Of a stretch of DNA of 64,000 nt, positions 1 through 64,000 are shown piece by piece. The number at the start of each line of letters is the position of its first letter. The stretch's first letter is position 1. The translations under genes were made by a program, and so were the position numbers. This DNA is from an uncultured Trueperaceae bacterium (lineage in GTDB: Bacteria; Deinococcota; Deinococci; Deinococcales; Trueperaceae), in contig CAWCXJ010000001.1 in NCBI GenBank assembly GCA_963799485.1, forward strand, positions 160,001 through 224,000, in the 5' to 3' direction. Below the pieces are notes generated by a model. It saw nothing but the letters and a program-made list of their open reading frames with translations. It was not told the origin of the DNA and ran no database searches.

Positions 1-713
1 CGCACTACCCGGTACTCTATCTGCACGACGGACAAAACTGTTTTGAGACGTTCTCAGGAGACGCGTTCGGCGCGACCTGGCGGGCTGAACATGCCGCAGA
101 CGCTATGGTTGCGGCGGGGCGAGCTCGGCCCTGTATCATCGTCGGGGTGAGTAACGGCGGAAAGAACAGGCTCGCGGAGTACCAACCCCCCTACAGCCGC
201 GTCCCGGACGCACCGCGCCGTAAACTCCAGCGCACGCCGCGAGGACGGGCCGACGACCTCTACCGCGAATACCGTAAAATTTCAGGCTTTATCGCCGCGC
301 ATTTTCGCGTGCTGCCGGGGCGCGAGCACACCGCCACCTGCGGCTCGTCGATGGGCGGACTTTTTTCGGCGTATCTGGCATTTGAACACCCTGACTTTGC
401 CAAGCATCACGCCCTGATGTCGCCGTCGTTTTGGACGACCGAGCATAAGGGCAAGCTCGAGCTACTCCGCCGTCTGCGCCGTAAACCCGTCCGCGACGTG
501 CGTATATGGCTCGATTCGGGCGAGGGTGAAGGTGACTCGGACGACAACAAAACCGTGACGCTGTTAGCCAGGGAAGCCCTCCTCGAAGCCGGCTACGAAG
601 AAAGCCGCGAGTTCGTCTATCGCTTTTTTCCGGGCGCAGCGCACAGCGAAGCGTCGTGGGCGGCGCGGTTTCCCGAGGTGCTCAGCTACCTCTTTCCGGC
701 AAAACCCGGATGA
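1..713 (+). CDS. Alpha/beta hydrolase (putative esterase family), 5'-truncated by window edge
   Basis: Frame is open from base 3 (HYPVLYLHDGQNCFE); GSSMGG nucleophile elbow; C-terminal HSEASWAARF. Confidence 0.85.
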   Translation, partial: HYPVLYLHDGQNCFETFSGDAFGATWRAEHAADAMVAAGRARPCIIVGVSNGGKNRLAEYQPPYSRVPDAPRRKLQRTPRGRADDLYREYRKISGFIAAHFRVLPGREHTATCGSSMGGLFSAYLAFEHPDFAKHHALMSPSFWTTEHKGKLELLRRLRRKPVRDVRIWLDSGEGEGDSDDNKTVTLLAREALLEAGYEESREFVYRFFPGAAHSEASWAARFPEVLSYLFPAKPG

Positions 714-1439
714 GGCGGCGTTACGAACGGCTTTACAGCCCCGCTGTCGGGCGAGACGTGCAGGTACTGGCGTTCGGGCACTACGGTGCGCCGCTGCTCG
801 CGTTTCCGTCCGGGGTGGACAGCTTTACGACTTTGAAACAAACGGCATGATTGCGGCGGTTGCGTCCTTCGACGCTGGAAAGAAGGTTTATTGTCCGGAA
901 AGTTTAGACCTCGAGTCCCTTCTCGCTTACAAAGACCCGCACGAGCGGGCGCTCCGGCACGGCGCTTACGAAGACTTCGTCGTCCACACGTTGCTAGGGG
1001 CGATTCGCGCCGATTGTGACGACGGCAGCCTCACCGCTGCGCTGACGGGCTGTTCGATTGGGGCGTTTCACGCCGCAAACTTCGCCCTTAAACACCCGCA
1101 CCTCTTCCCCTACGCACTCTGCTCAAGCGGGCGTTACGATTTGGAAACGATCACCGGCTCGAGCAGCTCGCGGGAGGTTTACTTCAACAATCCGGTCGCG
1201 TACGTGCCGAACTTTACGGGGGCACACTTGGGGTTCGTCCGGAGAAACGCACGTCTGATTCTGGTCGCCGGTCAAGGTGCGTGGAAGAGAAGTGTCTACG
1301 CGACACGCGCCGTTCGGCAGATTTGCTCGCCCAAAAAGGCATCTCGCATGAGCATGACATCTGGGGTGGGGACGCCGAACATCACTGGTACTGGTGGCAA
1401 AAACAGCTCGCGCATCACCTGGGGCGGTCACTGGGCTAG
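710..1439 (+). pseudogene. Esterase-family protein with two frameshifts (pseudogene or sequencing error)
   Basis: ATG 710 overlaps upstream TGA; FGHYGAPLLAFPS, shift at ~812 to GGQLYDFE, GCSIGAFHA and YFNNP, shift at ~1284 to EEKCL...HHWYWWQKQL, TAG at 1437-1439. Confidence 0.8.
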
Positions 1440-1512
1440 ACGCCACCGGGCAGGGCGCGGAATAATACCGGAATTACTAGTTTTACGGCTGCGGAAGAAT
1501 AGGCGGAGGCGT

Positions 1513-2766
1513 ATGAGCAAAATATCTGAAAACAACCTCGTCAAGAAGAAACTGGGCCTGCTCTTAGGCGACGAAGACGACTGGCCGAGCGCGTTGGAGG
1601 CGCTCGCCGGAAAGTTTCTCAGACCCATCAAAAAGGGCCGTAAAAGCTACGAGTTTGACCTCGAGCGTATCCGCATCCACCCCTTTGCCCTAAATGCACC
1701 GACCTCGTACAACCTGGTTATCGACCGCCTCGCCTGGTGGCACACGACCCCGCGCGAATGGCTGAAAAAAGCCGCGATGGTCAACGGCACCTACCTCTTA
1801 AACAACCCCTTTACCTTTCAGAGCATGGAAAAACACACCGCCTACTGCGTCATGCTCCGGTTGGGCCTGCGCATCCCTGAAACCTGGCTGATTCCGCCCA
1901 AGGAAGGCCCGGATACCGAGAAGTTTCGCCGCACCGCCGAGCGCTATCACGACTTATTCGACCTGCCGAAGATTGCCGAAGGGATCGGCTACCCGATGTT
2001 TATGAAACCCTTCGACGGCGGCGGCTGGCGCGGCGTTTCGGGCGTCAACGACGCGGGCGAACTGCAAAGGAGTTACGACGCGTCGGGCAACATGATTATG
2101 CACCTGCAAAAAGCCGTCGATTTCGAGGTGTTCGTCCGCTCGCTAGGCGTCGGGCCGCAGATTATCAGCCTGTCTTACGACCCCGCACAGCCCCTGCACG
2201 GGCGTTACAGCGTCCGGCACGACTTTTTAGACGCGGATACCGGACGCGAAGCGCGGGCGATTACCAAAATCATCAATGCCGTTTTTCGCTGGGAGTTCAA
2301 CTCGTGTGAGGCGCTCTTAAAGGACGGGACGCTCTGGCCCATCGACTTTGCCAACGCCTGCCCCGACATCGCCCTGACGAGCCTGCACTACTATTTTCCC
2401 TGGGCCATCAAGTCGCTTTTGGCCTGGAGCGTATTTTGCGGCGTCACGGAGCGGCAGCCGCGCGTGACGATGGATTTGGAGCACTATTTCAAGATTGCCG
2501 ATTCTGACCGGAGCTACGACGAGAAGCTTGCCGAATACGAACGGCTTGCCGACGCCTACTTCGACACCGAACGCTTCGAGGCGTTCCGGGCGGAAGAACT
2601 CGCCGGGCTCGACGAGGCGATGTGGGAACTTGTCGGCAGCGCGGAGTTTGACAGCATTTTACGGCGCACCGTCGAAACGACCTTTCCGGCCCACGAACAC
2701 GAACAGTTTACGGCGCACTATCAGGGGCTGATGCAGCACTGGCTCGAGGCTGAACGCCCACGTTGA
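1513..2766 (+). CDS. ATP-grasp domain ligase (RimK/glutathione-synthetase-like)
   Basis: GGAGG RBS then ATG 1513; motifs VIDRL, LNNPF, GYPMFMKPFDGGGWRGV, IDFANACPD. Confidence 0.85.
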   Translation: MSKISENNLVKKKLGLLLGDEDDWPSALEALAGKFLRPIKKGRKSYEFDLERIRIHPFALNAPTSYNLVIDRLAWWHTTPREWLKKAAMVNGTYLLNNPFTFQSMEKHTAYCVMLRLGLRIPETWLIPPKEGPDTEKFRRTAERYHDLFDLPKIAEGIGYPMFMKPFDGGGWRGVSGVNDAGELQRSYDASGNMIMHLQKAVDFEVFVRSLGVGPQIISLSYDPAQPLHGRYSVRHDFLDADTGREARAITKIINAVFRWEFNSCEALLKDGTLWPIDFANACPDIALTSLHYYFPWAIKSLLAWSVFCGVTERQPRVTMDLEHYFKIADSDRSYDEKLAEYERLADAYFDTERFEAFRAEELAGLDEAMWELVGSAEFDSILRRTVETTFPAHEHEQFTAHYQGLMQHWLEAERPR

Positions 2767-7036: not shown

Positions 7037-7047
7037 CGCCTTTGACG

Positions 7048-15809: not shown

Positions 15810-16625
15810 TTAGCGTCCGCGTGGGTCGCGCAAGTCCCTCAGTCCGTCTCCCAACAAACTCCACCCCAGCACCGTCAACACAATCGCCAACCCCGGTACC
15901 AGCACCGGATACGGGCTCAGCTGCAAAAACCCCTGCGCCTCACGGAGCATGTTGCCCCAGCTCGGCGTCCGGGGCGGCGTCCCGAGCCCCAAAAACGACA
16001 GCGCGGCCTCGGCAAGGACGGCAACGGCTAAACTGAGGCTCGCCTGTACGATAATAGGGGAGAGGGCGTTCGGCAGGATGTGCCGCCGTAAAAGTCGCCC
16101 TTGCGTAGAGCCTAACGCCCGCCCCGCCTCGACGAAATCGCGGTTTTTAAGTTCCATCACCGACGCCCGCAGGAGCCGCGCGAAAACCGGCGCGGTCGCA
16201 AGCCCGATAGCGCTCATCGCCGTAAACGTGCCGGGAGAATAGATGGCGGCGAAAAGGAGCGCCAGCAAAATCGGTGGGAAAGCGTAAAGCACATCGATCA
16301 GGCGCATAAGTACATCGTCGAACACGCCGCCGATAAACCCGGCGAGCGCCCCGACAAGGCAGCCGAGTGTCAGGGCGATACCGACCGCGACGAAACCGAC
16401 GAAGAGGGCACCCCTCGAGCCCACCAGGACTCTACTCAACAAGTCCCGCCCGAGCTGGTCAGTACCCAAAAGGTGCGCCGCAGACGGCCCCGAAAGCTGC
16501 GCCGTAAAGTCCATCGTGTTGGGGTCAACCGGCAGCCAGAAAAAACTCAGCACCGCCGAGACAACAACAAGACCGACCAATACCGCGCCGAGAAGAAGGT
16601 TAAAGGGCAAGCGGCGGCTAGTCAT
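15810..16625 (-). CDS. Peptide/nickel ABC transporter permease (DppC/OppC family)
   Basis: HLLGTDQLGRD, RHILPN, EAALSFLGLG. Confidence 0.92.
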   Translation of the reverse strand: MTSRRLPFNLLLGAVLVGLVVVSAVLSFFWLPVDPNTMDFTAQLSGPSAAHLLGTDQLGRDLLSRVLVGSRGALFVGFVAVGIALTLGCLVGALAGFIGGVFDDVLMRLIDVLYAFPPILLALLFAAIYSPGTFTAMSAIGLATAPVFARLLRASVMELKNRDFVEAGRALGSTQGRLLRRHILPNALSPIIVQASLSLAVAVLAEAALSFLGLGTPPRTPSWGNMLREAQGFLQLSPYPVLVPGLAIVLTVLGWSLLGDGLRDLRDPRGR

Positions 16626-17574: not shown

Positions 17575-19053
17575 CTACTGCGCCAGGTACGCTTCGGTCA
17601 GGTCGATAGCGACGATAGGCTGGTCTTGCCAGTAGCCGTAAAGGTTGTTTCGCGCCGCGACCAGATACGGCGGCGAGAAAACCCAGACGTTTACGGCGTC
17701 TTCGGCAATGGTGCGCTCAACCTCTTTGTAGAGCGACATTTGCTCAGTCTCATCACTCGTCTGTTCGACTTGAGCGAGCAAATCCTGAACTTTGGGGCTG
17801 TTGTAATGAAAATAGTAGTCGGGGTTGCCGTAAATGCCGATGTCTCTAGGCTCCGAGTGTCCGATGATGGTCATGTCGTAGTCGCCTGCCGTAAAAATGC
17901 GCTCGAGCCAGGTCGTCCATTCGACGTTGGTCAGGTTGACGTTGATACCGACTTCGGAAAGCTGCTGCGCGATAACCTCACCGGTGCGTTTTTCAATCGG
18001 ATAGGGCGGCAGCTCAAAGTCGAGCGTCAAACCGTCGGCGTAACCCGCTTCGGCAAGTAACGCTTTGGCTTTTTCGGGGTCGTAAGGGTACGGGTTCAGG
18101 TCTTCGTAATAGGGTTCAATCGGGCTCGCGTGCGTGCCGATAACCGTGCCGTACCCGAACATCGCACCCTCGACGATGGTCTTCTTATCGATGGCGTGCG
18201 TGATGGCTTGCCGGACGAGCGGGTTGTCGAGCGGTTTACGGGTGTTGTTCAGCGCCAGCGTGATTTCGGTCGTTGCCGAGCCTTCGGTGACCTTGATGTT
18301 CGGGTCGCCCTGAAGCTGAATGGCATTTTCCGGGCTGAGCGCGACGCCCACCATATCTAGGTCTCCGGCTTGGAGCGCCGCGAGTTGTGCGTTGGTGTCT
18401 TCGATAATCCGGAACGTTACGGCGTCCAGATACGCGGGTGTGCCGTAGTAACCCTCGTATTTCTCGAGCCTCACCTCACTGCCGCGCACCCACTCGGCAA
18501 ACCGGAAGGGGCCGGTGCCGACGGGTTCACTCGCTTGGCTGTCGGTGGTTCCGGCCTGATAGATGACGGAATCCGGGCGGGCTAAGTTGTAGAGGAGGCT
18601 CGAGTTCGGTTTACTCAGCGTCAGCACGACCGTATTGCCCTCGGCCCTGACATCTTCAATCGCTTCGTAATACTCGGGGTGCGTATGCCCGGATTCGGGG
18701 TCGGCGGCGCGTTTCAGAGCAGCCACCACGTCCGCCGGGGTCAGCGGGTCGCCGTTATGGAACGTCACACCTTCTTGCAGCGTAAACGTCCAGGTCAGGC
18801 CGTCGTCCGAAGTTTCCCAAGACGACGCGAGCGCCGGCACGATGTCGCCGTTGCGGTCGATGCGGACAAGTCCCTCAAAAACGTTGTGATACATCACGCG
18901 GGCAATTTCCTGCGAAGTCGAAACCGTCGGGTCCCAGCCGGGGGGTTCAGCGACGATTGAGACGGTGATGCTGCCGCCGGGTTGCGGTTCGGGTTGCGCG
19001 AAGCTCGCACTCCAGCCGAGCAGTAAGAGCGTCACTAAGATAAGCCTTTTCAT
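17575..19053 (-). CDS. ABC transporter substrate-binding protein, family 5
   Basis: Signal peptide, VPALASSWE, FHNG, GTGPF, VRQAI; AAGGAGG RBS. Confidence 0.93.
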   Translation of the reverse strand: MKRLILVTLLLLGWSASFAQPEPQPGGSITVSIVAEPPGWDPTVSTSQEIARVMYHNVFEGLVRIDRNGDIVPALASSWETSDDGLTWTFTLQEGVTFHNGDPLTPADVVAALKRAADPESGHTHPEYYEAIEDVRAEGNTVVLTLSKPNSSLLYNLARPDSVIYQAGTTDSQASEPVGTGPFRFAEWVRGSEVRLEKYEGYYGTPAYLDAVTFRIIEDTNAQLAALQAGDLDMVGVALSPENAIQLQGDPNIKVTEGSATTEITLALNNTRKPLDNPLVRQAITHAIDKKTIVEGAMFGYGTVIGTHASPIEPYYEDLNPYPYDPEKAKALLAEAGYADGLTLDFELPPYPIEKRTGEVIAQQLSEVGINVNLTNVEWTTWLERIFTAGDYDMTIIGHSEPRDIGIYGNPDYYFHYNSPKVQDLLAQVEQTSDETEQMSLYKEVERTIAEDAVNVWVFSPPYLVAARNNLYGYWQDQPIVAIDLTEAYLAQ

Positions 19054-19124: not shown

Positions 19125-20345
19125 CTATTCGCCGCTGAAAAAGTAGATTGCGGCGGCGGCGTAAAGTCTCGCAGCCTTGACAATACCTTCAACCTCGACG
19201 TATTCATCGCGTTGATGCGGCACCTCACGCGCCCCCGGCCCGACCGTGACAATGGGAATACCGGCCCACGCCGACAAAAAGGTGCCGTCGGTCGCCCCCG
19301 GCACGCCGCCGTAACGCGGTTCGGTTCTCAAAACCTGCGGATAGCTGCGCTCGAGCGCCCGCACGAGCGGGTCGTCCGGCGCGGTCTGCGTCCAGGGTCG
19401 GTCTTCTAACAGCGTCAGTGAAAGTTCGGTTTTGCCTCTAGACGCCTCAGCCAAACCCTCCAGCTCCGCCCAAAGTCCCCCATGGTCTTGCCCCGGTACG
19501 GTGCGGATGTCGAGCGCAGCATAGGCGGTTTCGGGTATCACGTTGAGCTGCGCTTCACCCCGCGCGGGTGCCCGTAAAATGGTCGGCGTCAACCAGGGGA
19601 GCCCCAGATATTCGTGCGTTCCTAAACGTGCCTGTTCAGAAGCTTCCAGCTCTTTCACTCGCGCTAAAAAGTCCAGCAGCGGCGAAATCGGGTTGACCCC
19701 GGCGTAAGGCATCGCGCCATGAGACATCTTGCCGGTGCTTAAAACCTCCACCCGCAAGGCACCTTTTTGACAGAGGCAGAGCTCGAGGTCTTCCGGTTCA
19801 CAGATGATGGCCCCGTTTACGGCGTCGGCCCAGCCCTGCCGGACGAAGTGCTTGACGCCCAGCATCATCCCCTCTTCGTCGGCGACGATACCCAGCCGAA
19901 TCCGCCCCGGCAGGTCGGGGACTGCTTGTTTTACGGCCTCTGCCGCAACGATAGCGGCGGCAACGCCCGCTTTCATATCGCACGCGCCGCGCCCGTAGAT
20001 GCGCCCGTCTACCAGCGCAGCGGCAAAAGGCGGATGTGTCCAGCGTTCAGGGTCGCCCTCGGTCACGACGTCGGTGTGACCCTCGAGCATCAGCGTTTTA
20101 TGCTTTGTCTCATCGAAGCCTGACCCGCTCCAGTCGGCAATAACATTCGGGCGACCGGGTGCAGCTTCTTCTACCGTGACGTGAAAGTCGCTTTCGCGTA
20201 AAGTGTCGGCGACGAAGTGCGCGGCCTCGGTTTCGTTGCTCCCCGGTTCAAACACACTGCGAATTTGTACGAGTTTGCGGGTCAGCGTTACGGCGCGTTC
20301 ACCGTTTACGGCGTCGGCGGCACGGGCGGCAAGCGCCTCTCTCAT
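19125..20345 (-). CDS. M20 family metallopeptidase (ArgE/DapE-like)
   Basis: GHTDVV, GRGACDMK, DEE, CEP, GATDG, HQRDE; ATG overlaps SDR stop. Confidence 0.9.
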   Translation of the reverse strand: MREALAARAADAVNGERAVTLTRKLVQIRSVFEPGSNETEAAHFVADTLRESDFHVTVEEAAPGRPNVIADWSGSGFDETKHKTLMLEGHTDVVTEGDPERWTHPPFAAALVDGRIYGRGACDMKAGVAAAIVAAEAVKQAVPDLPGRIRLGIVADEEGMMLGVKHFVRQGWADAVNGAIICEPEDLELCLCQKGALRVEVLSTGKMSHGAMPYAGVNPISPLLDFLARVKELEASEQARLGTHEYLGLPWLTPTILRAPARGEAQLNVIPETAYAALDIRTVPGQDHGGLWAELEGLAEASRGKTELSLTLLEDRPWTQTAPDDPLVRALERSYPQVLRTEPRYGGVPGATDGTFLSAWAGIPIVTVGPGAREVPHQRDEYVEVEGIVKAARLYAAAAIYFFSGE

Positions 20346-36748: not shown

Positions 36749-36804
36749 GGCGCGACCTCCTTTCACTCGGAAGGTTAGGTCGCAACTGTAAAGCTCCGAT
36801 AAAG

Positions 36805-39896: not shown

Positions 39897-41282
39897 GTGA
39901 CTAAACATGACCTTATCGTAATCGGCGCGGGGCCTGGTGGCTACGTCGCCGCAATCCGCGCCGCGCAGCTTGGCTTCGACACAGCCTGCGTCGAGCAAGA
40001 ACCGGCACTCGGCGGCACGTGTTTGCGGGTCGGGTGTATTCCGAGCAAAGCGCTGTTGGAATCGTCAGAAAAGTATCTCGAGACGCAAGGCGCACTCAAA
40101 GAACACGGCATCGAGGTATCGGGAGCGTCTTTGAATTTGGCGAATATGCATAAGCGCAAAGACAAAGTGGTCAAGATGTTGACCGGCGGCGTTGCCGGAC
40201 TGTTCAAAAAGAACGGTGTGACGCGCTACGAAGGCACGGCGAGCTTTACTGCGCCGGGCAAACTTACGGTTTCCGGCAAAGACGGGGAGACGGAATTAGA
40301 GGCCGAGCGCATCATCATCGCGACGGGCTCTTCGAGCGTCACGTTGCCCGGTATTGAAATCGACGGTGAGCAGGTCGGCACCTCGACCGACGCGCTTGCT
40401 TACGACAAGGTACCCGAACATCTCGTCGTTATCGGCGCGGGGTATATCGGCCTCGAGCTGGGATCGGTCTGGAAACGTCTGGGTGCAAAAGTTACCGTGG
40501 TCGAATATCTAGACCGCATCTTGCCGGGGATGGACACTGAAATCGCCGCCGACGCCCTGAAGATATTTAAGAAGCAGGGGCTCGAGTTCAAACTCGGCGC
40601 AAAGGTCACCTCGGCAAAAGCGCAGGGTGATAAGGCCGTCGTCGAAATCGAAGGGCAAGCTGCTTTAGAGGCCGACCGGGTTTTGGTCGCCGTCGGGCGC
40701 AAACCGAATACGGACGGATTGAACGTGGGGGCAATTGGTTTGGAACTCGACAAACGCGGCTTTGTGCCGGTAGATGAGCACTTCAAAACCAAAATCTCAG
40801 GTGTTTACGCTATCGGCGACGTCATCGGCGGCACGATGCTGGCGCACAAGGCCGAAGAAGAGGGCATCGCCTGCGTCGAAGGGCTTGCGACCGGCGTGGG
40901 GCACGTCAACTACGGCGCGATTCCGGGCGTCGCCTACACCGAGCCGGAAATCGCCTCGGTCGGCAAGACCGAAGAGCAGCTCCAAGACGAGGGCGTTGAC
41001 TACAAAAAAGGGACGTTCCCGTTTGTTGCCAACGGACGGGCGCGGGCACTCGGCCACACCGACGGCAAGGTCAAGGTGTTGGCCGACGCGAAAACCGACC
41101 GCTTGCTGGGCGTGCATATCTTGGGCTCACGCGCGGGCGACCTGATTGCCGAGGCGGTTGCTGCTTTGGAGTTCGGCGCGTCGGCAGAAGACGTAGCCCG
41201 GACCTCTCACGCGCACCCGACTCTGGCAGAGGCGTTTAAGGAGGCGGCGCTGGCAGTCGAGGGGCGGGCGATTCACGTCTAG
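39897..41282 (+). CDS. lpdA: Dihydrolipoamide dehydrogenase
   Basis: GAGPGGY, GGTCLRVGCIPSK, HAHPTLAE; GGAGG RBS before GTG. Confidence 0.97.
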   Translation: MTKHDLIVIGAGPGGYVAAIRAAQLGFDTACVEQEPALGGTCLRVGCIPSKALLESSEKYLETQGALKEHGIEVSGASLNLANMHKRKDKVVKMLTGGVAGLFKKNGVTRYEGTASFTAPGKLTVSGKDGETELEAERIIIATGSSSVTLPGIEIDGEQVGTSTDALAYDKVPEHLVVIGAGYIGLELGSVWKRLGAKVTVVEYLDRILPGMDTEIAADALKIFKKQGLEFKLGAKVTSAKAQGDKAVVEIEGQAALEADRVLVAVGRKPNTDGLNVGAIGLELDKRGFVPVDEHFKTKISGVYAIGDVIGGTMLAHKAEEEGIACVEGLATGVGHVNYGAIPGVAYTEPEIASVGKTEEQLQDEGVDYKKGTFPFVANGRARALGHTDGKVKVLADAKTDRLLGVHILGSRAGDLIAEAVAALEFGASAEDVARTSHAHPTLAEAFKEAALAVEGRAIHV

Positions 41283-41293
41283 CGGTTTGCCGG

Positions 41294-42133
41294 CTAATGT
41301 TTTACCGTTCGGACTCGAGCAGGAAGCTCAGCTCCCTGCTCGTTTTTTACCGCAACGTTGTAGTGCTGCGCCAACACCTCACCGACGACCTCATCTTCCG
41401 CAATCCCCCTGGCCTTCGCCTCCTCCCGGTACGCTTCGATAACTGCTTCAGGAAGCCGTAAAAGCTCACTGCGCCTGCTCCGGTCGCGGACGCGGTAGTT
41501 GTAAAGCGCGTTGACGCCCAAAACCCAACCCGCGCCGAGCGCGATTCCGGCTAAAACGTCGGACGGATAGTGAACTTGCAAGTAGAGCCTCGAGGCGCTC
41601 ACCGACAGGCAAAAGAGCAGCCCGAGAGTGCCCGCAAGCCATTGCCACTTGGGGGCGAGTCGCCGCACGACGAAAAAGAGCGTCAGGGCAAAGACCGCAC
41701 TGCCGGTCGCGTGACCACTCGGAAACGACGGTGAAGCGGTCTGCCAGTAGTTCACATCGGGGAATAGTTCGGGCCGGGGACGCGCTAAAACAACCTTGGT
41801 CAAACCCATAATGACCGACGCGCCGACCATGCTGACGGCAAAGAACACCGCCTCACGGTGACTCTTAAACCATAAAAAGATAATGAGCAGGGTGGAGAGT
41901 GCGATCATGACCTCGAGCCCACCTACCGTGCTCAGTGCGAGGGCAATCTGCGTCAAGGTCGGGGAAACGAAACCGTAAAACCAGGTTAAGACCGGCACGT
42001 CGAAAAAGAACCCCTGTTTTTCGTAGATTTGGTCGGTTAATTCGGCGAACGCCCAGAGACCGCCGAGCAGAATACCCCAGTAGAGCAGGAGTCGCCACGA
42101 GAGGCGTGAGAGTAAGGTCTTGATGACGTCCAT
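41294..42133 (-). CDS. PAP2-family membrane phosphatase
   Basis: KxxxxRPRP, SFPSGH, SRLYLQVHYPSDV. Confidence 0.93.
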   Translation of the reverse strand: MDVIKTLLSRLSWRLLLYWGILLGGLWAFAELTDQIYEKQGFFFDVPVLTWFYGFVSPTLTQIALALSTVGGLEVMIALSTLLIIFLWFKSHREAVFFAVSMVGASVIMGLTKVVLARPRPELFPDVNYWQTASPSFPSGHATGSAVFALTLFFVVRRLAPKWQWLAGTLGLLFCLSVSASRLYLQVHYPSDVLAGIALGAGWVLGVNALYNYRVRDRSRRSELLRLPEAVIEAYREEAKARGIAEDEVVGEVLAQHYNVAVKNEQGAELPARVRTVKH

Positions 42134-47417: not shown

Positions 47418-48407
47418 ATGAATCCTAAAGTCAACCCTCTAAGTCGGCGTCCGGCTCAGAAGCGCCTGGTGATTGCCGTGCGCGGGGCCGCCGGAACCGG
47501 CAAAAGTTACTTTGCGGCTTCCCTCGCGGACGCGGGCGTCGGTCGGCTCCTGTTTTTCGATGTCGAGCGCAAATCAAGATTGTTGCCGGGCGCAACCGGC
47601 GACACGCCCAAATTCGACGCCGTAGAGGTGCATCACCCTGACGAACTGCCGGAGTTTATAGACTGGGCCTTGGACGGCGAAGGCAAAGAGCAGCATTATG
47701 GGGCTTACGCGCTCGATTCGTGGAGTCTGTACTTTGCCCGTAAACACCGCGAGACGCTCCGGGCCGTGCGGGAGAAAACGGGCGACCCGACCGCGCCACC
47801 GACCGCCGACCAGCTGCAAGACGACCAGGTGCTCTACCAGGAGGTTTTACGGCGGCTTTGTATGGATTCGGGTGCGTGCGTGGTGATTACCGACCACATC
47901 GCCGCAAAGGGTAAAGAGCAGGTCGAAGAAAACGAGTTGGGGCAGGTGGTGCCGATTACGCGTGGCGGCTTGGAGTACTTTATCGATGTGATGCTCGAGC
48001 TGTCCCTCCGCGCCGACGGTTTTGAAACCAAACGCATCGGTACCGTTGTAAAGAGCAACAGCGACCATTTCCCGATTGGGCTCGAGCTTGAAGAACCGAC
48101 CTTCGGCGCGCTGCTCGCGCAGATGGACGACGTACCCAAACCGGCGCAGGACGACATTCCCGAGTTTTTGAAGCTTGACGAAACGCCTGTAGAAACCGGG
48201 CCGAGCCTCGAGGATGTGGTCAAGCAAGCCGAGACTTACGGCCTCGACCGCGCCAAACTGCTGCTCGCTGCCCGGAGCTATCACAAAGTTACGGCGTTAG
48301 AACAGCTTAGCGAGGCTCAGCGCAGCGACTTGTTAGCGCGGATGGCGGAGAAATTCGGTGCTGCCCAGCGCGTAAAAGCGTCAGATAAAAAAGCCTACGC
48401 GAACTAG
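47418..48407 (+). CDS. AAA_24/Sak4-like RecA-fold ATPase
   Basis: GAAGTGKS Walker A, FFDVE, YALDS Walker B, LEYFIDVMLEL. Confidence 0.75.
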   Translation: MNPKVNPLSRRPAQKRLVIAVRGAAGTGKSYFAASLADAGVGRLLFFDVERKSRLLPGATGDTPKFDAVEVHHPDELPEFIDWALDGEGKEQHYGAYALDSWSLYFARKHRETLRAVREKTGDPTAPPTADQLQDDQVLYQEVLRRLCMDSGACVVITDHIAAKGKEQVEENELGQVVPITRGGLEYFIDVMLELSLRADGFETKRIGTVVKSNSDHFPIGLELEEPTFGALLAQMDDVPKPAQDDIPEFLKLDETPVETGPSLEDVVKQAETYGLDRAKLLLAARSYHKVTALEQLSEAQRSDLLARMAEKFGAAQRVKASDKKAYAN

Positions 48408-51415: not shown

Positions 51416-52770
51416 TGGCTGACCTTGCTACCAATTTTTGCGGCGTTAAAAGCCCCAACCCGTTCTGGCTCGCGTCGGCCCCGCCAACGAACACTGCGTA
51501 CCAAATCAACAAAGCGTTCGAGTACGGTTGGGGCGGTGCGGTTTGGAAGACTATCGGCACACCTGTTCTGAACGTCTCGTCACGGTACGGCGGCTGGGAG
51601 TATAACGGCAACAAGCTGGCTGCCATCAACAACATCGAGCTGATTTCGGACAGGCCGCTAGCCGTAAACCTGCGCGAAATCGCCGAGGTCAAACGGCTCT
51701 GGCCTGAGCGCGCCGTCATCGTCTCGGCGATGTTCGAGTCCGACCCGAAGGTTTGGGCCGACGCCGTAAAACGCATCGAGGATACCGGCGCGGACGCCAT
51801 CGAACTCAACTACGGCTGCCCACACGGCATGTCGGAGCGCGGCATGGGTTCAGCCGTCGGGCAAGTTCCGGAATACTGCACGATGATTACCGAGTGGGTC
51901 ACGTCGGTGGCGAGCATCCCCGTAATCGTCAAATTGACGCCGAACATCACCGACATCAAGATGCCCGCTCGAGCTGCAATAGATGGTCACGCAAATGCTT
52001 TATCACTCATCAACACGATTAACTCGGTGGTTGGGGTAGATTTGGATTCGTTTCAACTCCGGCCCAACGTCGGTGGTAAAGGTGGACACGGCGGTTACGC
52101 GGGGCCCGCCGTAAAACCGATTGCGCTCAGTATGCTCAGCGAAGTGATGCAACTGCCTGAAACGCAGCGTTATCAGATTCCGGTTTCGGGTATGGGCGGC
52201 ATTCAAACCTGGCGCGACGCCGCCGAGTTTCTTCTTTTAGGTGCAACGAGTTTGCAGGTCTGCACGGCGGTCATGCACTACGGCTTTCGCCTCATCGAAG
52301 ACCTGACCGACGGTTTATCGAACTGGTTGGACGATAAAGGTGCTACCAGCATCCAGGAAATTATCGGCGCGTCGGCCCCGCGCTATTCACCCTTTAACGA
52401 ACTCGATCTGTCATACAAAGTCGTCGCGCGAATTGATGAGCGCACGTGTATCAACTGCAACCTCTGCTTTGTGGCGTGTGATGAGGGCGCGCATCAGTGC
52501 ATCGACCTGACCGTAAACGGCGCGAAAATCGACCCGGCGACGTATCGCGGCGACGTAAAAGCACAACCTGTAGTGCGTGAAGACGACTGCGTGGGGTGTA
52601 ACCTCTGCTCGCTGGTGTGTCCGGTAGACGGCTGCATTTCGATGATTGAGATGCCTTCGGGTAGAGATTCCGTGACCTGGGGCGAGATCACGGCGGAGCA
52701 GCCGGAAGTGACCAGTCAGTGGGACGAGATGGAACGTTACCGGGCGGCAAAAGGTATCGAAATTCACTAG
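51415..52770 (+). CDS. preA: Dihydropyrimidine dehydrogenase subunit PreA
   Basis: PFWLASAPP, NNIELI, NYGCPHGM, KLTPN, two C-terminal 4Fe-4S motifs. Confidence 0.95.
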   Translation: MADLATNFCGVKSPNPFWLASAPPTNTAYQINKAFEYGWGGAVWKTIGTPVLNVSSRYGGWEYNGNKLAAINNIELISDRPLAVNLREIAEVKRLWPERAVIVSAMFESDPKVWADAVKRIEDTGADAIELNYGCPHGMSERGMGSAVGQVPEYCTMITEWVTSVASIPVIVKLTPNITDIKMPARAAIDGHANALSLINTINSVVGVDLDSFQLRPNVGGKGGHGGYAGPAVKPIALSMLSEVMQLPETQRYQIPVSGMGGIQTWRDAAEFLLLGATSLQVCTAVMHYGFRLIEDLTDGLSNWLDDKGATSIQEIIGASAPRYSPFNELDLSYKVVARIDERTCINCNLCFVACDEGAHQCIDLTVNGAKIDPATYRGDVKAQPVVREDDCVGCNLCSLVCPVDGCISMIEMPSGRDSVTWGEITAEQPEVTSQWDEMERYRAAKGIEIH

Positions 52771-55735: not shown

Positions 55736-57577
55736 GTGCGAAAGAGGGTTTCTGCCTTTTTCCCTGTTTTGTTAGTCCTTATCGGCCTAATTTTGCTCGG
55801 CTATCCACTGGCGCTGCTATTTGGTTTACCTTTGGCTCTAAGAGACATGCGCGATTTGCGAAAGTGGGACAAAGCGACGGTGACGGCGAGACCGCCACAG
55901 CAACTCGAGGGTAGAACGACCTTAACTTTTACCAACGCGGCAGAAAAAGGTGTCCTTGTTCGGGACGGCGCGCCGCTGCGGATGCTCTATGCTCAGTCGG
56001 GTGCAGACGTAACGCTGGACGCAGAACCTACCGCGCCGCTCGTAACCTGGGGTGAAACGTTGACCCCGGTATCGGCGACGCTTTACCGGTACCCCGGCGA
56101 GTTACCCGACCCTTTGATGCTCTATGTCGGCAATAAGCTCTTGGTAGAGGGCGCGACCCCGGCTGCCGAAACGCCCGATGATGTGCGCACGACGTTTACC
56201 TTCGGCGACGCGTCCGGCCCTGTGTTGCTGGACGACGAAGTTTTGGCTGAAGGTCAATACACCGTTCAGGGCGACGCGCTGACTTTTACCAAAGCGCCAA
56301 GTTTTGGGAGCGTTTTACGGCGCGTTACGGATGATTACGCGGTTTTAGACGAGGGTAAAAGCACCGTCGTTTTTACGGCACCGCCGCAGGGAGCGGTGCG
56401 CGCCGTAAAGAGTGTCGTCCGGCTTGCCGAGCGCCTTTCGGGAGACGCAGACGGGACGAACCGCACGTTTACCTTTGCCCAAACACCCGTCGCCGAGACC
56501 GAACCCTACGACGTTTATGTGGACGGTACGCTTTTGTCAAGCGACGATGAGCGCCCGAACGAGCGGGTAGACGGTGAGCAGAAAACGTTTACCTTTGAAA
56601 GTAGCGAAGGAATCGTTACGGTAGACGGTGCGCCGCAAACCGAGGGCGAAGCCTATACGCGGGACGGTTTTACGGTGACGTTTGCCCAAGCGCCCGCCCG
56701 TAACGCGCAGCTCCGGCAGTATCCGGGTGCGTTTTTGAGCAATTTTGAAACAGGTGAAGTGCTGCTGGCCCGGACGCCTCCGGTGGGTGCAACGGTCTGG
56801 ACGGACGCTTACACGATCTACGCGCAACCGGGCTGCGGGGCAAACGTCATAGCGTGTTTTCTGGCCCTGCCGCAACATCCGGTGCCCTTTCCGCACTGGA
56901 TTGCTGCGCGCGTCGTCCCGTTTTTCGATAAGTTTCCGCTCGCTGATGAGCGCAACATCGTTCGGGCGGTGCTCTATACGGCTGCCGGAACGCTTTCGGC
57001 GCTGGCGCTCGGGGCGGCGGTCGGAACGCTGCTGGCGGTGCTGTTTGTGCTGGTGAGGCCCGTGGAGCGCGCCCTCTTGCCGTGGCTCGTCGCGTCGCAA
57101 ACGGTGCCGATTATCGCGCTCGTACCGGTGTTGCTGCTGATTTTGGGTAACGCGGGTATCACCATTCAAACATCGCTATTACCGACGGCGCTCATCGGCG
57201 CGTATATTGCGTTTTTTCCAGTCGTTGTCGGTACCGTAAAAGGTTTGCGCTCGGTTGACCCGCTGTCACTCGATTTGATGAAATCCTACGCGGCGACGCC
57301 CGTGCAGCTTTTTCTAAAGGTGCGGTTTCCGGCGGCGGTGCCGTTTTTGTTTACCTCGCTCAAACTGGCGGCGGCGGCGGCGCTCGTCGGGGCGCTCGTC
57401 GCTGAAACCGAATCGAACAACCGGCGTGGTTTAGGCTTTCAGATTTTGGGTCAGGTGCAGTCCGGCAACGTGGCGGACGTGTGGATTTTGCTGCTGATTT
57501 CGGCGCTCTTGGGGATTGGGCTCGTCGGGCTCGTCGGTTTGTTGCAACGCTTTATCGCACCGTGGGAGCGTTCGTGA
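55736..57577 (+). CDS. ABC permease (NitT/TauT) with large extracytoplasmic beta-repeat insertion
   Basis: N-term TM, ~350-aa beta-rich region, C-term QTVPIIALVP/FFPVV permease core. Confidence 0.85.
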   Translation: MRKRVSAFFPVLLVLIGLILLGYPLALLFGLPLALRDMRDLRKWDKATVTARPPQQLEGRTTLTFTNAAEKGVLVRDGAPLRMLYAQSGADVTLDAEPTAPLVTWGETLTPVSATLYRYPGELPDPLMLYVGNKLLVEGATPAAETPDDVRTTFTFGDASGPVLLDDEVLAEGQYTVQGDALTFTKAPSFGSVLRRVTDDYAVLDEGKSTVVFTAPPQGAVRAVKSVVRLAERLSGDADGTNRTFTFAQTPVAETEPYDVYVDGTLLSSDDERPNERVDGEQKTFTFESSEGIVTVDGAPQTEGEAYTRDGFTVTFAQAPARNAQLRQYPGAFLSNFETGEVLLARTPPVGATVWTDAYTIYAQPGCGANVIACFLALPQHPVPFPHWIAARVVPFFDKFPLADERNIVRAVLYTAAGTLSALALGAAVGTLLAVLFVLVRPVERALLPWLVASQTVPIIALVPVLLLILGNAGITIQTSLLPTALIGAYIAFFPVVVGTVKGLRSVDPLSLDLMKSYAATPVQLFLKVRFPAAVPFLFTSLKLAAAAALVGALVAETESNNRRGLGFQILGQVQSGNVADVWILLLISALLGIGLVGLVGLLQRFIAPWERS

Positions 57578-60512: not shown

Positions 60513-62297
60513 GTGCATCGTGCTGTGCGCTTTTTCCTGCTTTTTCTGCTCGTCCTGAGTACCGGGTATCTTGCGTGGCTACTCTTTTACCCACGCCCAC
60601 TGCCGCTGCCTTTGGTCACCGTCGGCTTCGAAAACCCCTATCAAAAACCTTTGCTTGCCGACTACGAACGCCTTTTTAAGGCGGAGTTGCGCGGAGATAC
60701 CGGCACGCTCGAGCAGTTTGTCAAAGCCGCCCCGAACAGCTATTTGCGCTACCGCACCCTCTTAAACCTCGCGCGTACCCCGCAGCTTCCGGCCAAGGTG
60801 CGGCTCGCATATCTGGAGCAGGTGCTGGCGTTTGACCTCATCTCACCGCTTGCTCGCGACGACGTAAAAAGGGCGCAGCTTGCGCTGGGCCGGCTCGCCG
60901 AAGAAGCCGGAGCTACCGCCCGCGCCGCTACCGCTTACGGGGAGGCGCTCCCGCAAGAGGCTGCGTTTCGGGGACTCCTGCGGCTGAACCTCGAGCCCCG
61001 CACGCTGGCCCGGATTTTTCTGGACGCCCGCGACCCCGAACGGGCGCTCACAGCGCTCAAGGGTATTGCGGCACCGGAACTGCGCGCACCCGCCCTCGCC
61101 GCCGTAGGCGACCCTGCGCGGGCGCTCAAGGTGTATAACCGCCTACTCACGCAGCAACCAAACGACGTGGCGGCGCGCCGGGGAAAGTTCGGCGTGCTTT
61201 TGTCGCTGGGGCGCTTTCGTCAAGCGGAGGCGGTCTTGAAAACGTTGCCCGGTTCACTCGCGGCCCAAGTTCAGCTCGCCGAAGCCGAGGACGATCCCGA
61301 CGCGCGCCTCGCGGCGTATCTGGAACTCGGCGACGCCCGCAGCTTGTGGCTGGCAGCGGGGATTATCGAGGCGCAGGGCGACGCCGCGGCTGCCTTGCCG
61401 CTTTACTTAGAGCTTGCTCGAGACGCCCCGAGTGACGCCAACGACTACCGCGACGACGCGGCCTTTCGCGCTTACACCCTCGCCACCCGCGCCGGTGATG
61501 CGGAGACTGCTGGCGCGGCGGACGCCCTTATTCCGGCGGACAGCTTTTTCAGCCTGCTCCGGGGACGGTCGCTGCCCGCTTTTAACCAACCCCTACGGCG
61601 CGTGACGCCGCCTGTGCTCGAGCTGTCCCGAGTCCTCCGCCAAGCCGGGGATACCGAAGCGGCTTTGGGCGAACTGCTCGTTGCGCTCTCCCGAAGCCGT
61701 GACGAAGCCACTACTGTGGCTCTAGCCGAAGCGTTACAGGAGCTGGGTGAATTCGGCTCGAGTTCACTTGCGGCGAGCACCTATGTTCAGCGTGGCAGCC
61801 GCGCCCGCCGTACCTACCGGGCCGCGTATCCCCAGGCTTACAAACCGACCGTCCGGGCTCAGGCGCGTGCTTACGGTCTGCCCCCGGCGCTCCTCTGGGC
61901 GGTGATGCGCCAAGAATCGCATTTTTACCCCCGCGCCGTGTCCCGCTCCGGCGCGCAAGGCTTGCTGCAACTCGTACCGAGCACCTGGGATTACGTCGCC
62001 GAGCTGCTGGGTGAACCGCCCGCCGACCCTTTTAACCCCGCCGCCAACGTCCGTTACGGCGCATTTTATTTGTCAAGATTGTTGGGGCAGTTTGACGGCA
62101 AGCTGCCCGAAAGTATCGCCGCGTATAACGGTGGCCCCGGTTATATCAGCAGGTTGCTGGACGAACCGGCGCTGACGGTTACAACCGACCCTTACCCCGA
62201 CTTTCTCCGCGCCATCACCCGCGACGAAACCCGCGAATACGTCGCCCGGGTGATGATGAACTATGCGGTTTACGGCGAGCTTTACGGGCTGAAGTAG
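60513..62297 (+). CDS. Soluble lytic transglycosylase-domain protein
   Basis: N-term TM, helical repeats, MRQES, GAQGLLQL, AYNGGPG, ETREYV. Confidence 0.92.
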   Translation: MHRAVRFFLLFLLVLSTGYLAWLLFYPRPLPLPLVTVGFENPYQKPLLADYERLFKAELRGDTGTLEQFVKAAPNSYLRYRTLLNLARTPQLPAKVRLAYLEQVLAFDLISPLARDDVKRAQLALGRLAEEAGATARAATAYGEALPQEAAFRGLLRLNLEPRTLARIFLDARDPERALTALKGIAAPELRAPALAAVGDPARALKVYNRLLTQQPNDVAARRGKFGVLLSLGRFRQAEAVLKTLPGSLAAQVQLAEAEDDPDARLAAYLELGDARSLWLAAGIIEAQGDAAAALPLYLELARDAPSDANDYRDDAAFRAYTLATRAGDAETAGAADALIPADSFFSLLRGRSLPAFNQPLRRVTPPVLELSRVLRQAGDTEAALGELLVALSRSRDEATTVALAEALQELGEFGSSSLAASTYVQRGSRARRTYRAAYPQAYKPTVRAQARAYGLPPALLWAVMRQESHFYPRAVSRSGAQGLLQLVPSTWDYVAELLGEPPADPFNPAANVRYGAFYLSRLLGQFDGKLPESIAAYNGGPGYISRLLDEPALTVTTDPYPDFLRAITRDETREYVARVMMNYAVYGELYGLK

Positions 62298-62563
62298 CCA
62301 AAGAGGAGGTACGGGTTCTACCTTTGTCTACTTTGACTGTTAGAAAACTCGGCTTATCGACGTTACGGTAAACTCGCTCAGCGTGCGTTAGACCCAAGTT
62401 GTGGGCAAACTTTTGACCTATACCTAACCTAAAGGGGGAGAACTGCACCAGGGCAAAGCAGCACTTGAGAACACGTCATCCGTAAAAACATCTAGAACGC
62501 AACAAAGCTCGCGCAAACGGTGTTTTGTGCCTCGAGCCCACACCTCGCTCAAAGGGAGTAAAG

Positions 62564-63772
62564 ATGAAAGCAGTCGTATTTCACGCTATCGGTGACATCC
62601 GTTTAGACGACGTTCCCGAGCCGACCCTTCAAGACCCCAACGACGCTATCGTGCGGCTGACCGCGAGCGCGATTTGCGGCACCGACCTGCACATGATTCG
62701 CGGGACGTTTACCGGGATGGAAGAGGGACGTATTTTGGGTCACGAGGGTGTCGGTATCGTCGAAGCGGTCGGCGACGACGTACGAAACCTCGGTGTGGGC
62801 GACCGCGTGGTGATTCCTTCGACTGTCGGTTGCGGGTACTGTTCGTACTGCCGCGCCGGGTACTACGCGCAGTGCGACAATGCCAACCCGAACGGTAAAC
62901 GCGCCGGGACGACCTTTTTCGGCGGGCCGGAAGCGGCGGGCGGGCTCGACGGGATGCAAGCGGAAAAGGTGCGCGTCCCCTTTGCCAACGTCGGTTTGGT
63001 CAAGTTGCCGGACAACGTCACCGACGACCAGGCGATTATGATTTCAGACATCTTTCCGACCGGGTATTTTGGCGCTGACTTGGCTGAAATCGAAGCCGGG
63101 GACACAGTGGCAGTCTTTGGCTGTGGCCCGGTCGGGCAGTTTGCCATCCTGAGCGCCAAGCTTATGGGCGCGGGCCGGGTAATCGCCGTCGACCGGCATC
63201 CCAGCAGGTTGGCAGCCGCCAAAGCGCAAGGGGCCGAGGTTGTGAACTTCGACGAGGAAGACCCGGTAGAAACGATTGTGCGGCTTACCGGTGGTATCGG
63301 CGTCGATAGGGTTATCGACGCGGTCGGGGTGGACGCGCAGCACGCCGACCACGGCCCCGCCGCCCCGGAAGCGCAGGCGGAAAAGCAGTTCGACGCCCAG
63401 GTCGAGCAGCTTGCTCCGAAACAAAATCCCGACGGTGACAACTGGATTCCCGGTGACGCGCCTTCACAAGCGCTCGAGTGGGCGGTAGCGTCCGTTGCCA
63501 AGGCCGGAACGGTGTCGATTATCGGGGTTTACCCGCCGACGATGCAAACGTTTCCCATCGGACAGGCGATGAACAAAAACTTGACGCTCAAGATGGGCAA
63601 CTGCAACCACCGCAAGTACATCCCCAAGCTCATCGATCTGGTCGCTTCGGGGGTTGTCGATCCGGCCAAGGTGTTGACCGAAACCGAAAAGGTGCAAGAC
63701 GCTATCTCGGCGTATAAAGCGTTCGACGAGCGGCAACCGGGTTGGCTCAAGGTCGAACTCGAGCCCGCGTAG
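62564..63772 (+). CDS. Zinc-dependent alcohol/formaldehyde dehydrogenase (glutathione-independent type)
   Basis: ICGTDLH, GHEGVG, CGYCSYC..C, SDIFPTG, GCGPVG. Confidence 0.92.
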   Translation: MKAVVFHAIGDIRLDDVPEPTLQDPNDAIVRLTASAICGTDLHMIRGTFTGMEEGRILGHEGVGIVEAVGDDVRNLGVGDRVVIPSTVGCGYCSYCRAGYYAQCDNANPNGKRAGTTFFGGPEAAGGLDGMQAEKVRVPFANVGLVKLPDNVTDDQAIMISDIFPTGYFGADLAEIEAGDTVAVFGCGPVGQFAILSAKLMGAGRVIAVDRHPSRLAAAKAQGAEVVNFDEEDPVETIVRLTGGIGVDRVIDAVGVDAQHADHGPAAPEAQAEKQFDAQVEQLAPKQNPDGDNWIPGDAPSQALEWAVASVAKAGTVSIIGVYPPTMQTFPIGQAMNKNLTLKMGNCNHRKYIPKLIDLVASGVVDPAKVLTETEKVQDAISAYKAFDERQPGWLKVELEPA

Positions 63773-63960
63773 CCTGCTCGGCAACGCGCACAGCTAAAAC
63801 CCAAGCGCGTATCAACCTGCAGCGATTTGACCCTTAGGGTCTGCCGGGCCAAGTGTGCTGTGCTTAATACCCGCGCTCACTATACGCAGCTATGTGAAGC
63901 CTAAAACTTTAGGGTGATAAAAGCCGATTGTCAACAGCTATACCGCACTAAAGGAGCACT

Positions 63961-64000
63961 GTGAACACCGTAAAAACCGCTGCACGCTTGGATTTGGCCG
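63961..64000 (+). CDS. Start of a gene truncated by the window edge
   Basis: AAGGAG RBS then GTG (MNTVKTAARLDL). Confidence 0.5.
   Translation, partial: MNTVKTAARLDLA

Follow-up and report, generated by a model that had tools for sequence, protein, structure and literature searches.

The non-palindromic seven-base word CCGTAAA (TTTACGG when read on the other strand) is strongly enriched in the genome of an uncultured Trueperaceae bacterium (assembly GCA_963799485.1), is driven upward at the level of DNA, and is so arranged that neighboring copies on either strand tend to stand a whole number of helical turns apart. We analyzed it starting from a stretch of 64,000 nucleotides (the window; positions 160,001 to 224,000 of contig CAWCXJ010000001.1), in which an initial annotation made from the sequence alone had noticed the word. 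The source genome (G000) comprises 3.66 Mb in 15 contigs, the window lying on its contig C1, and was compared with two sister genomes (G005 and G001) and with other members of the genus (G002, G003 and G004). From the observations below we infer that CCGTAAA is the preferred site of a sequence-reading chromosomal protein assembly that would bend or wrap about 120 base pairs (bp) of duplex along one face, a reading to which we give roughly an even chance.

Abundance of the word in the window and the genome

An exact count on both strands gives 76 copies of CCGTAAA in the window, 41 on the forward and 35 on the reverse strand, against 5.8 expected from base composition and 10.0 +- 3.2 (maximum 17) in 100 dinucleotide shuffles. 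The initial annotation was right in calling the word strongly over-represented, and all nine positions that it quoted are exact, but its estimate of 55-65 copies was too low, and the GC content that it assumed (about 62%) was too high, the window having 58.9%. The form GCCGTAAA accounts for 48 of the 76 copies, and the extended consensus is CGCCGTAAAA, the complete 10-mer being present in 15 of them.

The whole genome holds 3,274 copies (1,667 and 1,607 on the two strands), or about 0.9 per kb, and the 9-mer CGCCGTAAA exceeds Markov models by 6.7-12-fold. In our own gene calls (3,582 genes) there are 2,741 copies, compared with 743 when synonymous codons are shuffled within each gene and 854 when codon-junction dinucleotides are also kept (8 shuffles for each null). 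The enrichment in genes, which the initial annotation had proposed to probe with a codon- and dinucleotide-preserving null, thus persists at 3.2-3.7-fold. Enrichment is seen in all five reading frames that the word can occupy (1.8- to 19-fold depending on frame and null), where several had been claimed, and intergenic DNA contains 492 copies against 109 expected (4.5-fold). The cause of the enrichment acts at the DNA level, as that annotation had held; the codon nulls, the intergenic excess, the bias between sister genomes and the shifts in amino acids (see below) all support this. A codon or amino-acid artefact is ruled out by the codon nulls together with a register that extends across frames, genes and shuffles.

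Copies are scarce in the prophage-like contigs C2 and C3 (0.25-0.27 per kb against about 0.9 elsewhere); C3 encodes a phage capsid gene and C2 carries the matching gene block. In G005, genes with a G000 orthologue hold 0.92 copies per kb and those without one 0.47-0.62, that is, there is a core-genome excess. Genes with ribosomal-type codon use hold 0.54 copies per kb against about 1.0. Relative to gene starts and stops the word has neither phase nor excess. Enrichment in DNA-maintenance genes was considered and dropped, since the top-ranked genes, judged by eye, were mixed and the dispersion was 1.3. The near-absence that had been placed at 33.6-39.6 kb of the window is real, with a single copy there, and the gap is in fact wider (Table 1). 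This stretch holds part of ftsH, glgC, and a SCO1 / two-component / DsbD-type / oxidoreductase cluster that looks like a recent acquisition.

Gain, loss and base specificity

Gain and loss of the word were measured in alignments of 777 G000-G005 orthologues (748 kb codon-aligned), by comparing synonymous third positions at which the other six bases match in both genomes with the same codon class elsewhere. Gain of CCGTAAA is raised by a factor of 2.39 (1.9-3.0) and loss is reduced to 0.31 (0.25-0.39). A one-parameter curve of selection or biased conversion (S 2.04) fits as well as a free fit, and gain-only and loss-only fits are worse by 55 and 37 log units, respectively. Note that the estimator is biased by conditioning; it was checked at matched divergence in five simulation runs (two of drive, two loss-only and one gain-only). 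Simulated drive with S 1.7 gives gain and loss factors of 2.4-3.5 and 0.28-0.41, loss-only change gives 2.0-2.1 and 0.15-0.21, and gain-only change gives 5.1 and 0.70. Drive, by selection or biased conversion, is the best fit, with a true S nearer 1.5-1.7.

Among 7,144 seven-mers scanned, CCGTAAA has the highest weakest-position bias of those measurable at five or more positions, with values of 1.3-2.1 at all seven; among 2,079 six-mers, CCGTAA is second in alignment bias, behind CTCGAG. Variants in the last base are partly favored (CCGTAAC 0.84, CCGTAAT 0.61, CCGTAAG 0.40), the other one-letter variants reach 0.28 for CCGGAAA and at most 0.22 for the rest, and flanking C, G and A are also favored, which leads to the extended form given above. 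Avoidance of neighboring restriction words was rejected as a cause, all seven positions being favored.

The word also alters amino acids. The tripeptides that it encodes outnumber their reversed forms for AVK (432/310), FYG (209/108) and FTA (381/239), and the same ratios in G002 are below 1; the excess is weak or absent for LR and RK. Residues at CCGTAAA sites are identical to those of G002 in 375 of 540 cases, against 411 expected (z -3.6).

Helical register between copies

For the analysis of spacing, duplicated contexts were removed before pairs were counted, and the null model keeps distance modulo 3. Same-strand spacings peak at 12, 21 and 30 bp. The in-phase amplitude of pairs at 8-60 bp is 0.53 in G000 (n=281, z 6.2) and 0.63 in G005 (n=81, z 4.0), and that of pooled pairs at 61-120 bp is 0.60 (n=397, z 8.0). 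The period of the register is 10.30 bp (bootstrap 10.26-10.36), its overall amplitude is 0.57, and copies in the two orientations are best centered on the same base, the middle A of the A-tract. When the 826 pairs at 8-130 bp are divided, the amplitude is 0.57 for opposite strands (n=350), 0.50 for different reading frames (167), 0.57 for different genes or a gene and an intergenic region (97), and 0.39 where both copies are intergenic (165). At other periods it falls to -0.04 (10.8 bp) and -0.18 (11 bp). Periodicity of alpha-helices, which would appear at 10.8 bp, was therefore rejected, the more so as the register spans strands, frames and genes; repeated elements were rejected as its source on account of the prior de-duplication.

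The register has a definite range. Over turns 1-11 there are 8.4-11.2 pairs per bp in phase and 2.2-5.5 out of phase, against a far baseline of about 5.3, and at turns 12-20 the in-phase value is 5.2-7.8. In other words, the register stays level for 11 turns (about 115 bp), at 1.8 times the far baseline in phase and 0.74 times out of phase, drops at turn 12, and has disappeared past 300 bp. Alignment bias also depends on spacing, being 2.06 +- 0.19 for copies in phase with a neighbor, 1.52 +- 0.10 for isolated copies and 1.51 +- 0.29 for copies out of phase. In the window, 9 of the 13 close pairs (140 bp or less) lie within 0.2 turn of a whole number, where about 5 are expected (Table 1). The initial annotation had noticed neither this register nor the even greater enrichment of CTCGAG.

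This behavior is particular to the word. CCGTAA and CGTAAA rank first and second in self-phasing among the 386 six-mers with enough pairs, and CTCGAG and seven control words have amplitudes within about 0.1 in nearly all bins. In the flanks of CCGTAAA, A/T pairs fall in phase and G/C pairs out of phase. The AA/TT period of the genome is 11.0-11.1 bp, with about 1% amplitude, in all four genomes measured (G000, G005, G001 and G002), and CCGTAAA has its own period, distinct from this one.

These data bear on two explanations other than a specific wrapping protein. The first is a cause in which no protein takes part, namely context-dependent mutation or selection on intrinsic curvature, plus codon effects. 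A-tract words are indeed mildly enriched across the genus, CCGTAAA joins a G/C run to an A/T run, and synonymous shuffles retain an amplitude of 0.27. However, that residual amplitude arises because some shuffled pairs re-create real sites: shuffled pairs with two real sites give 0.54 and those with none 0.08 +- 0.13 (n=110), so the signal vanishes once real sites are removed. Furthermore, A-tract words are unphased at 10.3-10.5 bp, GCGTAAA, CCGCAAA, CCGAAAA and CGGTAAA have no bias in the G000-G005 alignments, and gain-only change is both the poorer fit and different in simulation, as described above. We consider a protein-free cause highly improbable.

The second is a site for gyrase or another topoisomerase, whose wrapped footprint of 130 bp would have acquired a preferred word. 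The gyrase motif of E. coli extends over 130 bp with phased GC content, has a period of 10.75 bp and is degenerate (PMC6379681). It resembles the present signal in length, which is close to the 115-125-bp range seen here, and in its phased A/T and G/C, but it differs in period, the bootstrap range and the amplitude at 10.8 bp given above both standing apart from it, and in that a discrete word with base-specific recognition is found here. We give this explanation very little credence.

Distribution among relatives

Among 41 genomes, the raw count of CCGTAAA is high in G000, G005 (3,405) and G001 (2,005). In the relatives, the samples for the within-gene codon nulls were 1.44 Mb out of 4.4 Mb for G005, 0.4 Mb for each of G001 and G002, and about 0.1 Mb for each of G003, G004 and G008. 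They give enrichments of 3.6-fold in G000, 3.1 in G005 and 2.6 in G001, and of 1.6 in G002, 0.8 in G003, and 1.1 in both G004 and G008. Pairs two turns apart number 21 in G000, 23 in G005 and 4 in G001, and 0-1 in 107 of 109 other genomes of the family, the two exceptions being mostly tandem repeats. Within the set searched, the signal occurs only in a single clade of three genomes, and the comparison across relatives that the initial annotation had suggested thus finds enrichment in G000, G005 and G001 only. The reversed word was discarded as a cross-genome control because it is misleading: it puts the enrichment of CCGTAAA in G002 at 6-fold, where codon nulls give 1.2-1.6-fold.

Two other words were observed in the same comparison. 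TTTAAA is almost purged from G000: 22 sites are left, or 4-6% of the codon-null expectation (copies of one insertion sequence-like gene hold 7, and one site is at window position 2868); the purge affects exactly the three genomes that favor CCGTAAA and not G002 or G003, and no Type II system for TTTAAA was seen in G000. Enrichment of TCTAAAA extends through the genus (224/46 in G000, 41/2 in G002, 22/3 in G003), and the word has an alignment bias of 1.2; in G002 it lies mostly in one frame, and its phasing with CCGTAAA is weak (0.14 +- 0.08). It is possibly an older related signal or dialect. Strongly avoided in G000 are GGCGCC (0.06), CGGCCG, GGWCC, GGGCCC, CCGCGG, GATC and GACNNNGTC, and no matching resident Type II systems were found.

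A bending or wrapping protein as the proposed reader

According to the reading that we favor, the protein would recognize the bases of CCGTAAA themselves, because variants that differ by one letter but keep the G/C-then-A/T shape are not favored and are not in phase with copies of themselves. It would face the narrow minor groove of the A-tract, since the register is centered on the A-tract in either orientation and the flanks carry A/T in phase and G/C out of phase. One bound unit would cover about 120 bp, and any two sites on its face would add benefit; this is suggested by an in-phase excess that keeps its level through turn 11 and drops after it. The 10.3-bp repeat, being below 10.5 bp and apart from the 11-bp period of the genome, would reflect either an overtwisted, left-handed wrap of the nucleosome type or attachment to relaxed DNA; in the latter case a multi-contact uptake receptor would also be conceivable. 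Each site would confer a weak advantage, with a scaled strength of about 1.5-2, through selection on chromosome packing or protection or through biased conversion between chromosome copies, and sites would accumulate with residence time.

Several points weigh against this reading. Only 969 of the 3,274 sites (30%) have a neighbor within 130 bp. Because the remaining 70% lack one and isolated sites are favored almost as strongly, the register is to be seen as a bonus that explains the bias only in part. G001 does not clearly have the register: its 61 same-strand pairs give an amplitude of 0.23 +- 0.18, with 0.52 for spacings of 9-39 bp and -0.12 for those of 40-70 bp. G000 and G005, which share about half of their sites, are not independent replicates. 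Loss-only change is excluded less firmly than gain-only change. The repeat of relaxed DNA is 10.4-10.5 bp, so close to 10.3 that the wrap itself is tentative. The two histone-fold families searched, PF09123 and PF00808, are absent from all six genus genomes, and the binding partner of CCGTAAA remains a prediction from sequence.

One lead to that partner is a second chromosomal HU gene (Table 1), with 95-100% identical matches in G000, G005 and G001 only and at most 75% in the other 28 of 31 genomes (for the copies of G001 and G004 the comparison is one of identity alone). Its product is a candidate, although a weak one, for part of the assembly. HU is largely not sequence-specific, the DNA-contacting arm of the second HU is nearly the same as that of ordinary HU, and the co-occurrence is weak evidence because any clade-specific gene co-occurs with the word in three related genomes; these points, too, count on the negative side. 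The closest other matches to this gene (74-75%) are on a second, smaller contig of G001, which suggests that it may have been captured from a plasmid lineage.

A stronger form of the reading is that the clade recently evolved a sequence-encoded chromatin code, in which a non-histone spool would read CCGTAAA and wrap a length of about 120 bp with 10.3 bp to the turn, much as a nucleosome does; thousands of codons and some of the amino acids would have been changed so that its rotational setting along the chromosome is fixed. We offer this form only tentatively, as a possibility that is probably too strong.

DNA uptake as a rival explanation

The initial annotation proposed a DNA-uptake-like signal, for which the known examples are the DNA uptake sequences (DUS) of Neisseriaceae and the uptake signal sequences (USS) of Pasteurellaceae. 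In this case the transformation machinery would prefer the word, molecular drive would spread it, and a multi-contact receptor on relaxed extracellular DNA would produce the register. Occurrence on both strands and in all frames, with gain raised and loss lowered, is what such drive predicts, and the enriched tripeptides and the divergence from G002 at the sites recall the effects on the proteome that Findlay and Redfield reported for uptake sequences (PMC2817400). In addition, comEC is found in all six genus genomes, comEA in G000, and a pilin cluster is present; the helically phased T-tracts carried by USS offer a parallel (PMC3458573); and the word is scarce in the prophage-like contigs. 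By analogy, then, CCGTAAA is like DUS and USS in being non-palindromic, in lying on both strands in thousands of copies, in reshaping tripeptides and in being scarce in recently acquired DNA.

In other respects the fit is poor. The word has 7 bp and is enriched only 3-4-fold, whereas DUS and USS are words of 9-12 bp that are far more enriched. Inverted CCGTAAA pairs within 30 bp number 37 (11 intergenic) for the 3,274 sites, unlike all DUS dialects, which have many terminator pairs (PMC3630211). The pilus-tip set, a ComZ-like protein and three minor pilins, belongs to the fastest-changing orthologues: between G000 and G005 its members are 47, 52, 55 and 48% identical (orthologue median 86%, tenth percentile 54%), so that a conserved pilus-tip receptor appears to be lacking although both genomes favor the same word; a receptor may lie elsewhere. 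Competence genes are present also in genomes without the word, and a site-to-site register over 115 bp, or 11 turns, is not described in the available parts of the uptake literature examined. On balance we regard uptake as unlikely. As a separate observation, the major pilin frame at G000 C5:83750-88795 is interrupted in the assembly and intact in G005, which is either a real loss or an assembly error.

Recombination and methylation as rival explanations

A repair or recombination signal had also been proposed. A Chi-like site of AddAB, read as TTTACGG, would stop resection and be favored by selection or conversion, and random two-ended breaks would not require polarity. An AddA/AddB-like pair is found in G000, G001, G002, G003 and G005, and an AddA-like gene in G004. 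These matches are below curated cut-offs, and the predicted model of AddB, with a predicted local distance difference test (pLDDT) score of 56, has 3U4Q_B as its top fold match; the comparison with the Chi-bound structure is one of fold, no sequence alignment at residue level having been obtained. AddB is 91% identical between G000 and G005. Moreover, CCGTAAA resembles the Chi-like sites AGCGG and GAAGCGG in its length (5-8 bp for such sites), its asymmetry, its few-fold enrichment, its core-genome excess and its 3' CGG end on one strand (PMC8022716).

However, there is no replichore polarity and no leading-strand bias. Once gene strand is allowed for, the 16 G-rich bins have a residual of -0.3% and the 7 C-rich bins one of +0.9%, with a rho of -0.14 over 34 bins, as measured against a faint replication skew with oriC not located; G005 has a mild excess in one arc (139 against 115 of 240) and no mirror deficit in the other. 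AddAB occurs also in genomes without the word. In particular, Chi is read on a single strand, and such reading gives no reason for a duplex register between copies on opposite strands. A Chi-like role is very unlikely. The initial annotation had argued against Chi from the occurrence of both orientations, an argument that is weak by itself given the faint skew; the polarity test against that skew carries the weight.

The remaining proposal was a resident asymmetric methyltransferase, which would mark the word so that methyl-directed repair or uptake favors it, as may happen with HIP1 of cyanobacteria or with CTCGAG in the present genome. CTCGAG is the most favored word of G000 (129 sites in the window, 7,252 in the genome, bias about 3) and more enriched than CCGTAAA; between G000 and G005 its gain is raised by a factor of 2.7 and its loss reduced to 0.10, and it is preceded by about 20 G-rich bp and followed by about 20 C-rich bp. 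An orphan Eco57I-like methyltransferase gene (G000 C6:25999-27357, next to dnaG) is present in all six genus genomes, and a Marinithermus enzyme with an Eco57I-like annotation methylates CTCGAG (PMC4752239). CTCGAG is also the best match for the orphan enzyme, which is its likely partner.

A genome that both drives CTCGAG and keeps this orphan enzyme makes a methylation-linked origin conceivable for CCGTAAA, and G000 has MmeI-like and Type III enzymes, classes that read asymmetric words. Yet the MmeI-like gene exists in G005 and G001 only as 30-59% fragments, the Type III gene was not found in G005, Type I and other systems are patchy, and a small enzyme common to G005 and G001 was not found in G000; the MmeI-like enzyme was dropped as a reader of CCGTAAA, its gene being unshared. 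There was no match to a D12-class methyltransferase over the cut-off. The only methyltransferase shared by the three enriched genomes is the orphan Eco57I-like enzyme, and none was found that is common to all enriched genomes and absent elsewhere, C5 enzymes not having been searched in the relatives and assembly gaps or unrecognized families being possible. CTCGAG has no register (0.06 +- 0.05), and CCGTAAA is graded at its last base and in its flanks, which most methylation sites are not. The supplements of Blow 2016 that were searched, which include no Truepera, contain no such motif. Methylation is accordingly a most improbable origin of the word, and no resident candidate common to the three enriched genomes supports the proposal.

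Further genes related to methylation and defense were observed. At one locus (L188, L189; about 600-1950), G005 and G001 have in common a short methyltransferase frame with a nuclease-like neighbor; G000 has a 55% match to the neighbor elsewhere and no match to the short frame. The two prophage-like gene blocks of contigs C2 and C3 are nearly identical and include a C5 methyltransferase, and C9 carries a duplicated DUF1156 / DUF499 / SNF2 defense cluster. In the window, a stand-alone Mrr-like (Type IV restriction) gene at 42221-43108 adjoins leuS.

Table 1. Copies of CCGTAAA in the window, close pairs with their helical spacing, and other located features. Turns are computed at 10.32 bp, and distances between opposite-strand copies are taken between A-tract centers.
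Feature	Position	Strand	Remarks
CCGTAAA starts	218, 272, 479, 1638, 4493, 6621, 16086, 16220, 16502, 17341, 17636, 17828, 17889, 19074, 19572, 21508, 22115, 23751, 27464, 28469, 29621, 35012, 41456, 41973, 43397, 44705, 46478, 47738, 49179, 51304, 51662, 51764, 52109, 52511, 52941, 54677, 56403, 57234, 58562, 62480, 63968	+	
CCGTAAA starts	1213, 1482, 2658, 2707, 4962, 5357, 7910, 10360, 11205, 12164, 14771, 15515, 17690, 18235, 19816, 19930, 20305, 20828, 22313, 24155, 24816, 24950, 25250, 25512, 29219, 47846, 51034, 54893, 55116, 56314, 56372, 56669, 57931, 62269, 62281	-	
Pair	218..278	+	54 bp, 5.23 turns, intermediate phase
Pair	2658..2713	-	49 bp, 4.75 turns, intermediate phase
Pair	16086..16226	+	134 bp, 12.98 turns, in register
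Opposite-strand pair	17636..17696		centers 50 bp apart, 4.84 turns, in register
Pair	17828..17895	+	61 bp, 5.91 turns, in register
Pair	19816..19936	-	114 bp, 11.05 turns, in register
Pair	24816..24956	-	134 bp, 12.98 turns, in register
Opposite-strand pair	47738..47852		centers 104 bp apart, 10.08 turns, in register
Pair	51662..51770	+	102 bp, 9.88 turns, in register
Triplet	56314..56409		outer copies separated by 93 bp, 9.01 turns, in register; middle copy (56372) out of register with each of them, 5.62 and 3.39 turns
Pair	62269..62287	-	12 bp, 1.16 turns, in register
Word-poor stretch	29628..41455		1 CCGTAAA (35012) in 11.8 kb, Poisson p 3e-4 at genome rate; 20 CTCGAG, a normal density
Second chromosomal HU	L087:6722-7006; G000 C6:192948-193232		beside pta-ackA

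Comparison with known signals and meaning

In geometry, the closest known system is the signal that positions nucleosomes in eukaryotes and archaea. DNA wrapped in nucleosomes is associated with periods of 10-10.5 bp, and the supercoiled chromosome of bacteria with one of about 11 bp (PMC4132750). The likeness consists in the period of 10.3 bp, the range of slightly more than 100 bp, A/T in phase with G/C out of phase, and independence of orientation. Nucleosome signals, however, are made of degenerate dinucleotides, whereas here a single 7-mer has an amplitude of 57%, in a bacterium without a match in the two histone-fold Pfam families. The dinucleotide periodicity of bacteria, for which Atzinger and Lawrence 2020 report about 2% at 11.07 bp in E. 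coli, is like the present signal in that helical spacing is under selection inside genes and an unknown partner is proposed (PMC7537859); CCGTAAA differs in having a period of 10.3 bp instead of the shared genomic 11 bp, with an amplitude more than 25 times as large.

In abundance, the comparison is with HIP1, a palindrome that is 15-300-fold enriched and periodic at 10-90 kb (Xu, Lawrence and Durand 2018, PMC5861425). As described there, HIP1 is abundant, is conserved in and between genes beyond codon expectation, is scarce in highly expressed regions and has a proposed role in chromosome structure, all of which is like CCGTAAA; unlike HIP1, CCGTAAA is asymmetric, 3-4-fold enriched and phased at 10.3 bp, and it is CTCGAG that is the HIP1-like word of G000. 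Rough kilobase-scale spectra of CCGTAAA on four contigs, computed without a null, have differing peaks at 6, 62, 68 and 88 kb. CCGTAAA thus resembles uptake sequences and HIP1 in abundance and conservation and the nucleosome signal in geometry, and departs from each family in a defining feature.

Literature text searches for CCGTAAA and its longer and reverse forms, with most subscription papers and bioRxiv supplements outside their scope, returned nothing relevant. Similarly, a specific word with a helical register from copy to copy is not described in the available parts of PMC4752239, PMC5861425, PMC8022716, PMC7537859, PMC2817400, PMC3458573, PMC3630211, PMC4060949, PMC3940949, PMC4132750 and PMC6379681. 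For decades, helical periodicity has been on record in bacterial genomes as a weak signal in dinucleotides, with no known binding partner (PMC7537859), and for abundant words of the kind of HIP1 no reader has been identified either (PMC5861425).

Here, a single discrete word shows a strong register with a distinct period and a well-defined range, and its origin lies inside one genus that includes close relatives without it. The word provides a ready bait for fishing out the protein, together with a natural before-and-after comparison. If the reader were an uptake receptor, the word would be an uptake sequence outside the only two families that, to our knowledge, have one. If the reader wraps DNA, CCGTAAA would constitute a nucleosome-like positioning code without histones.

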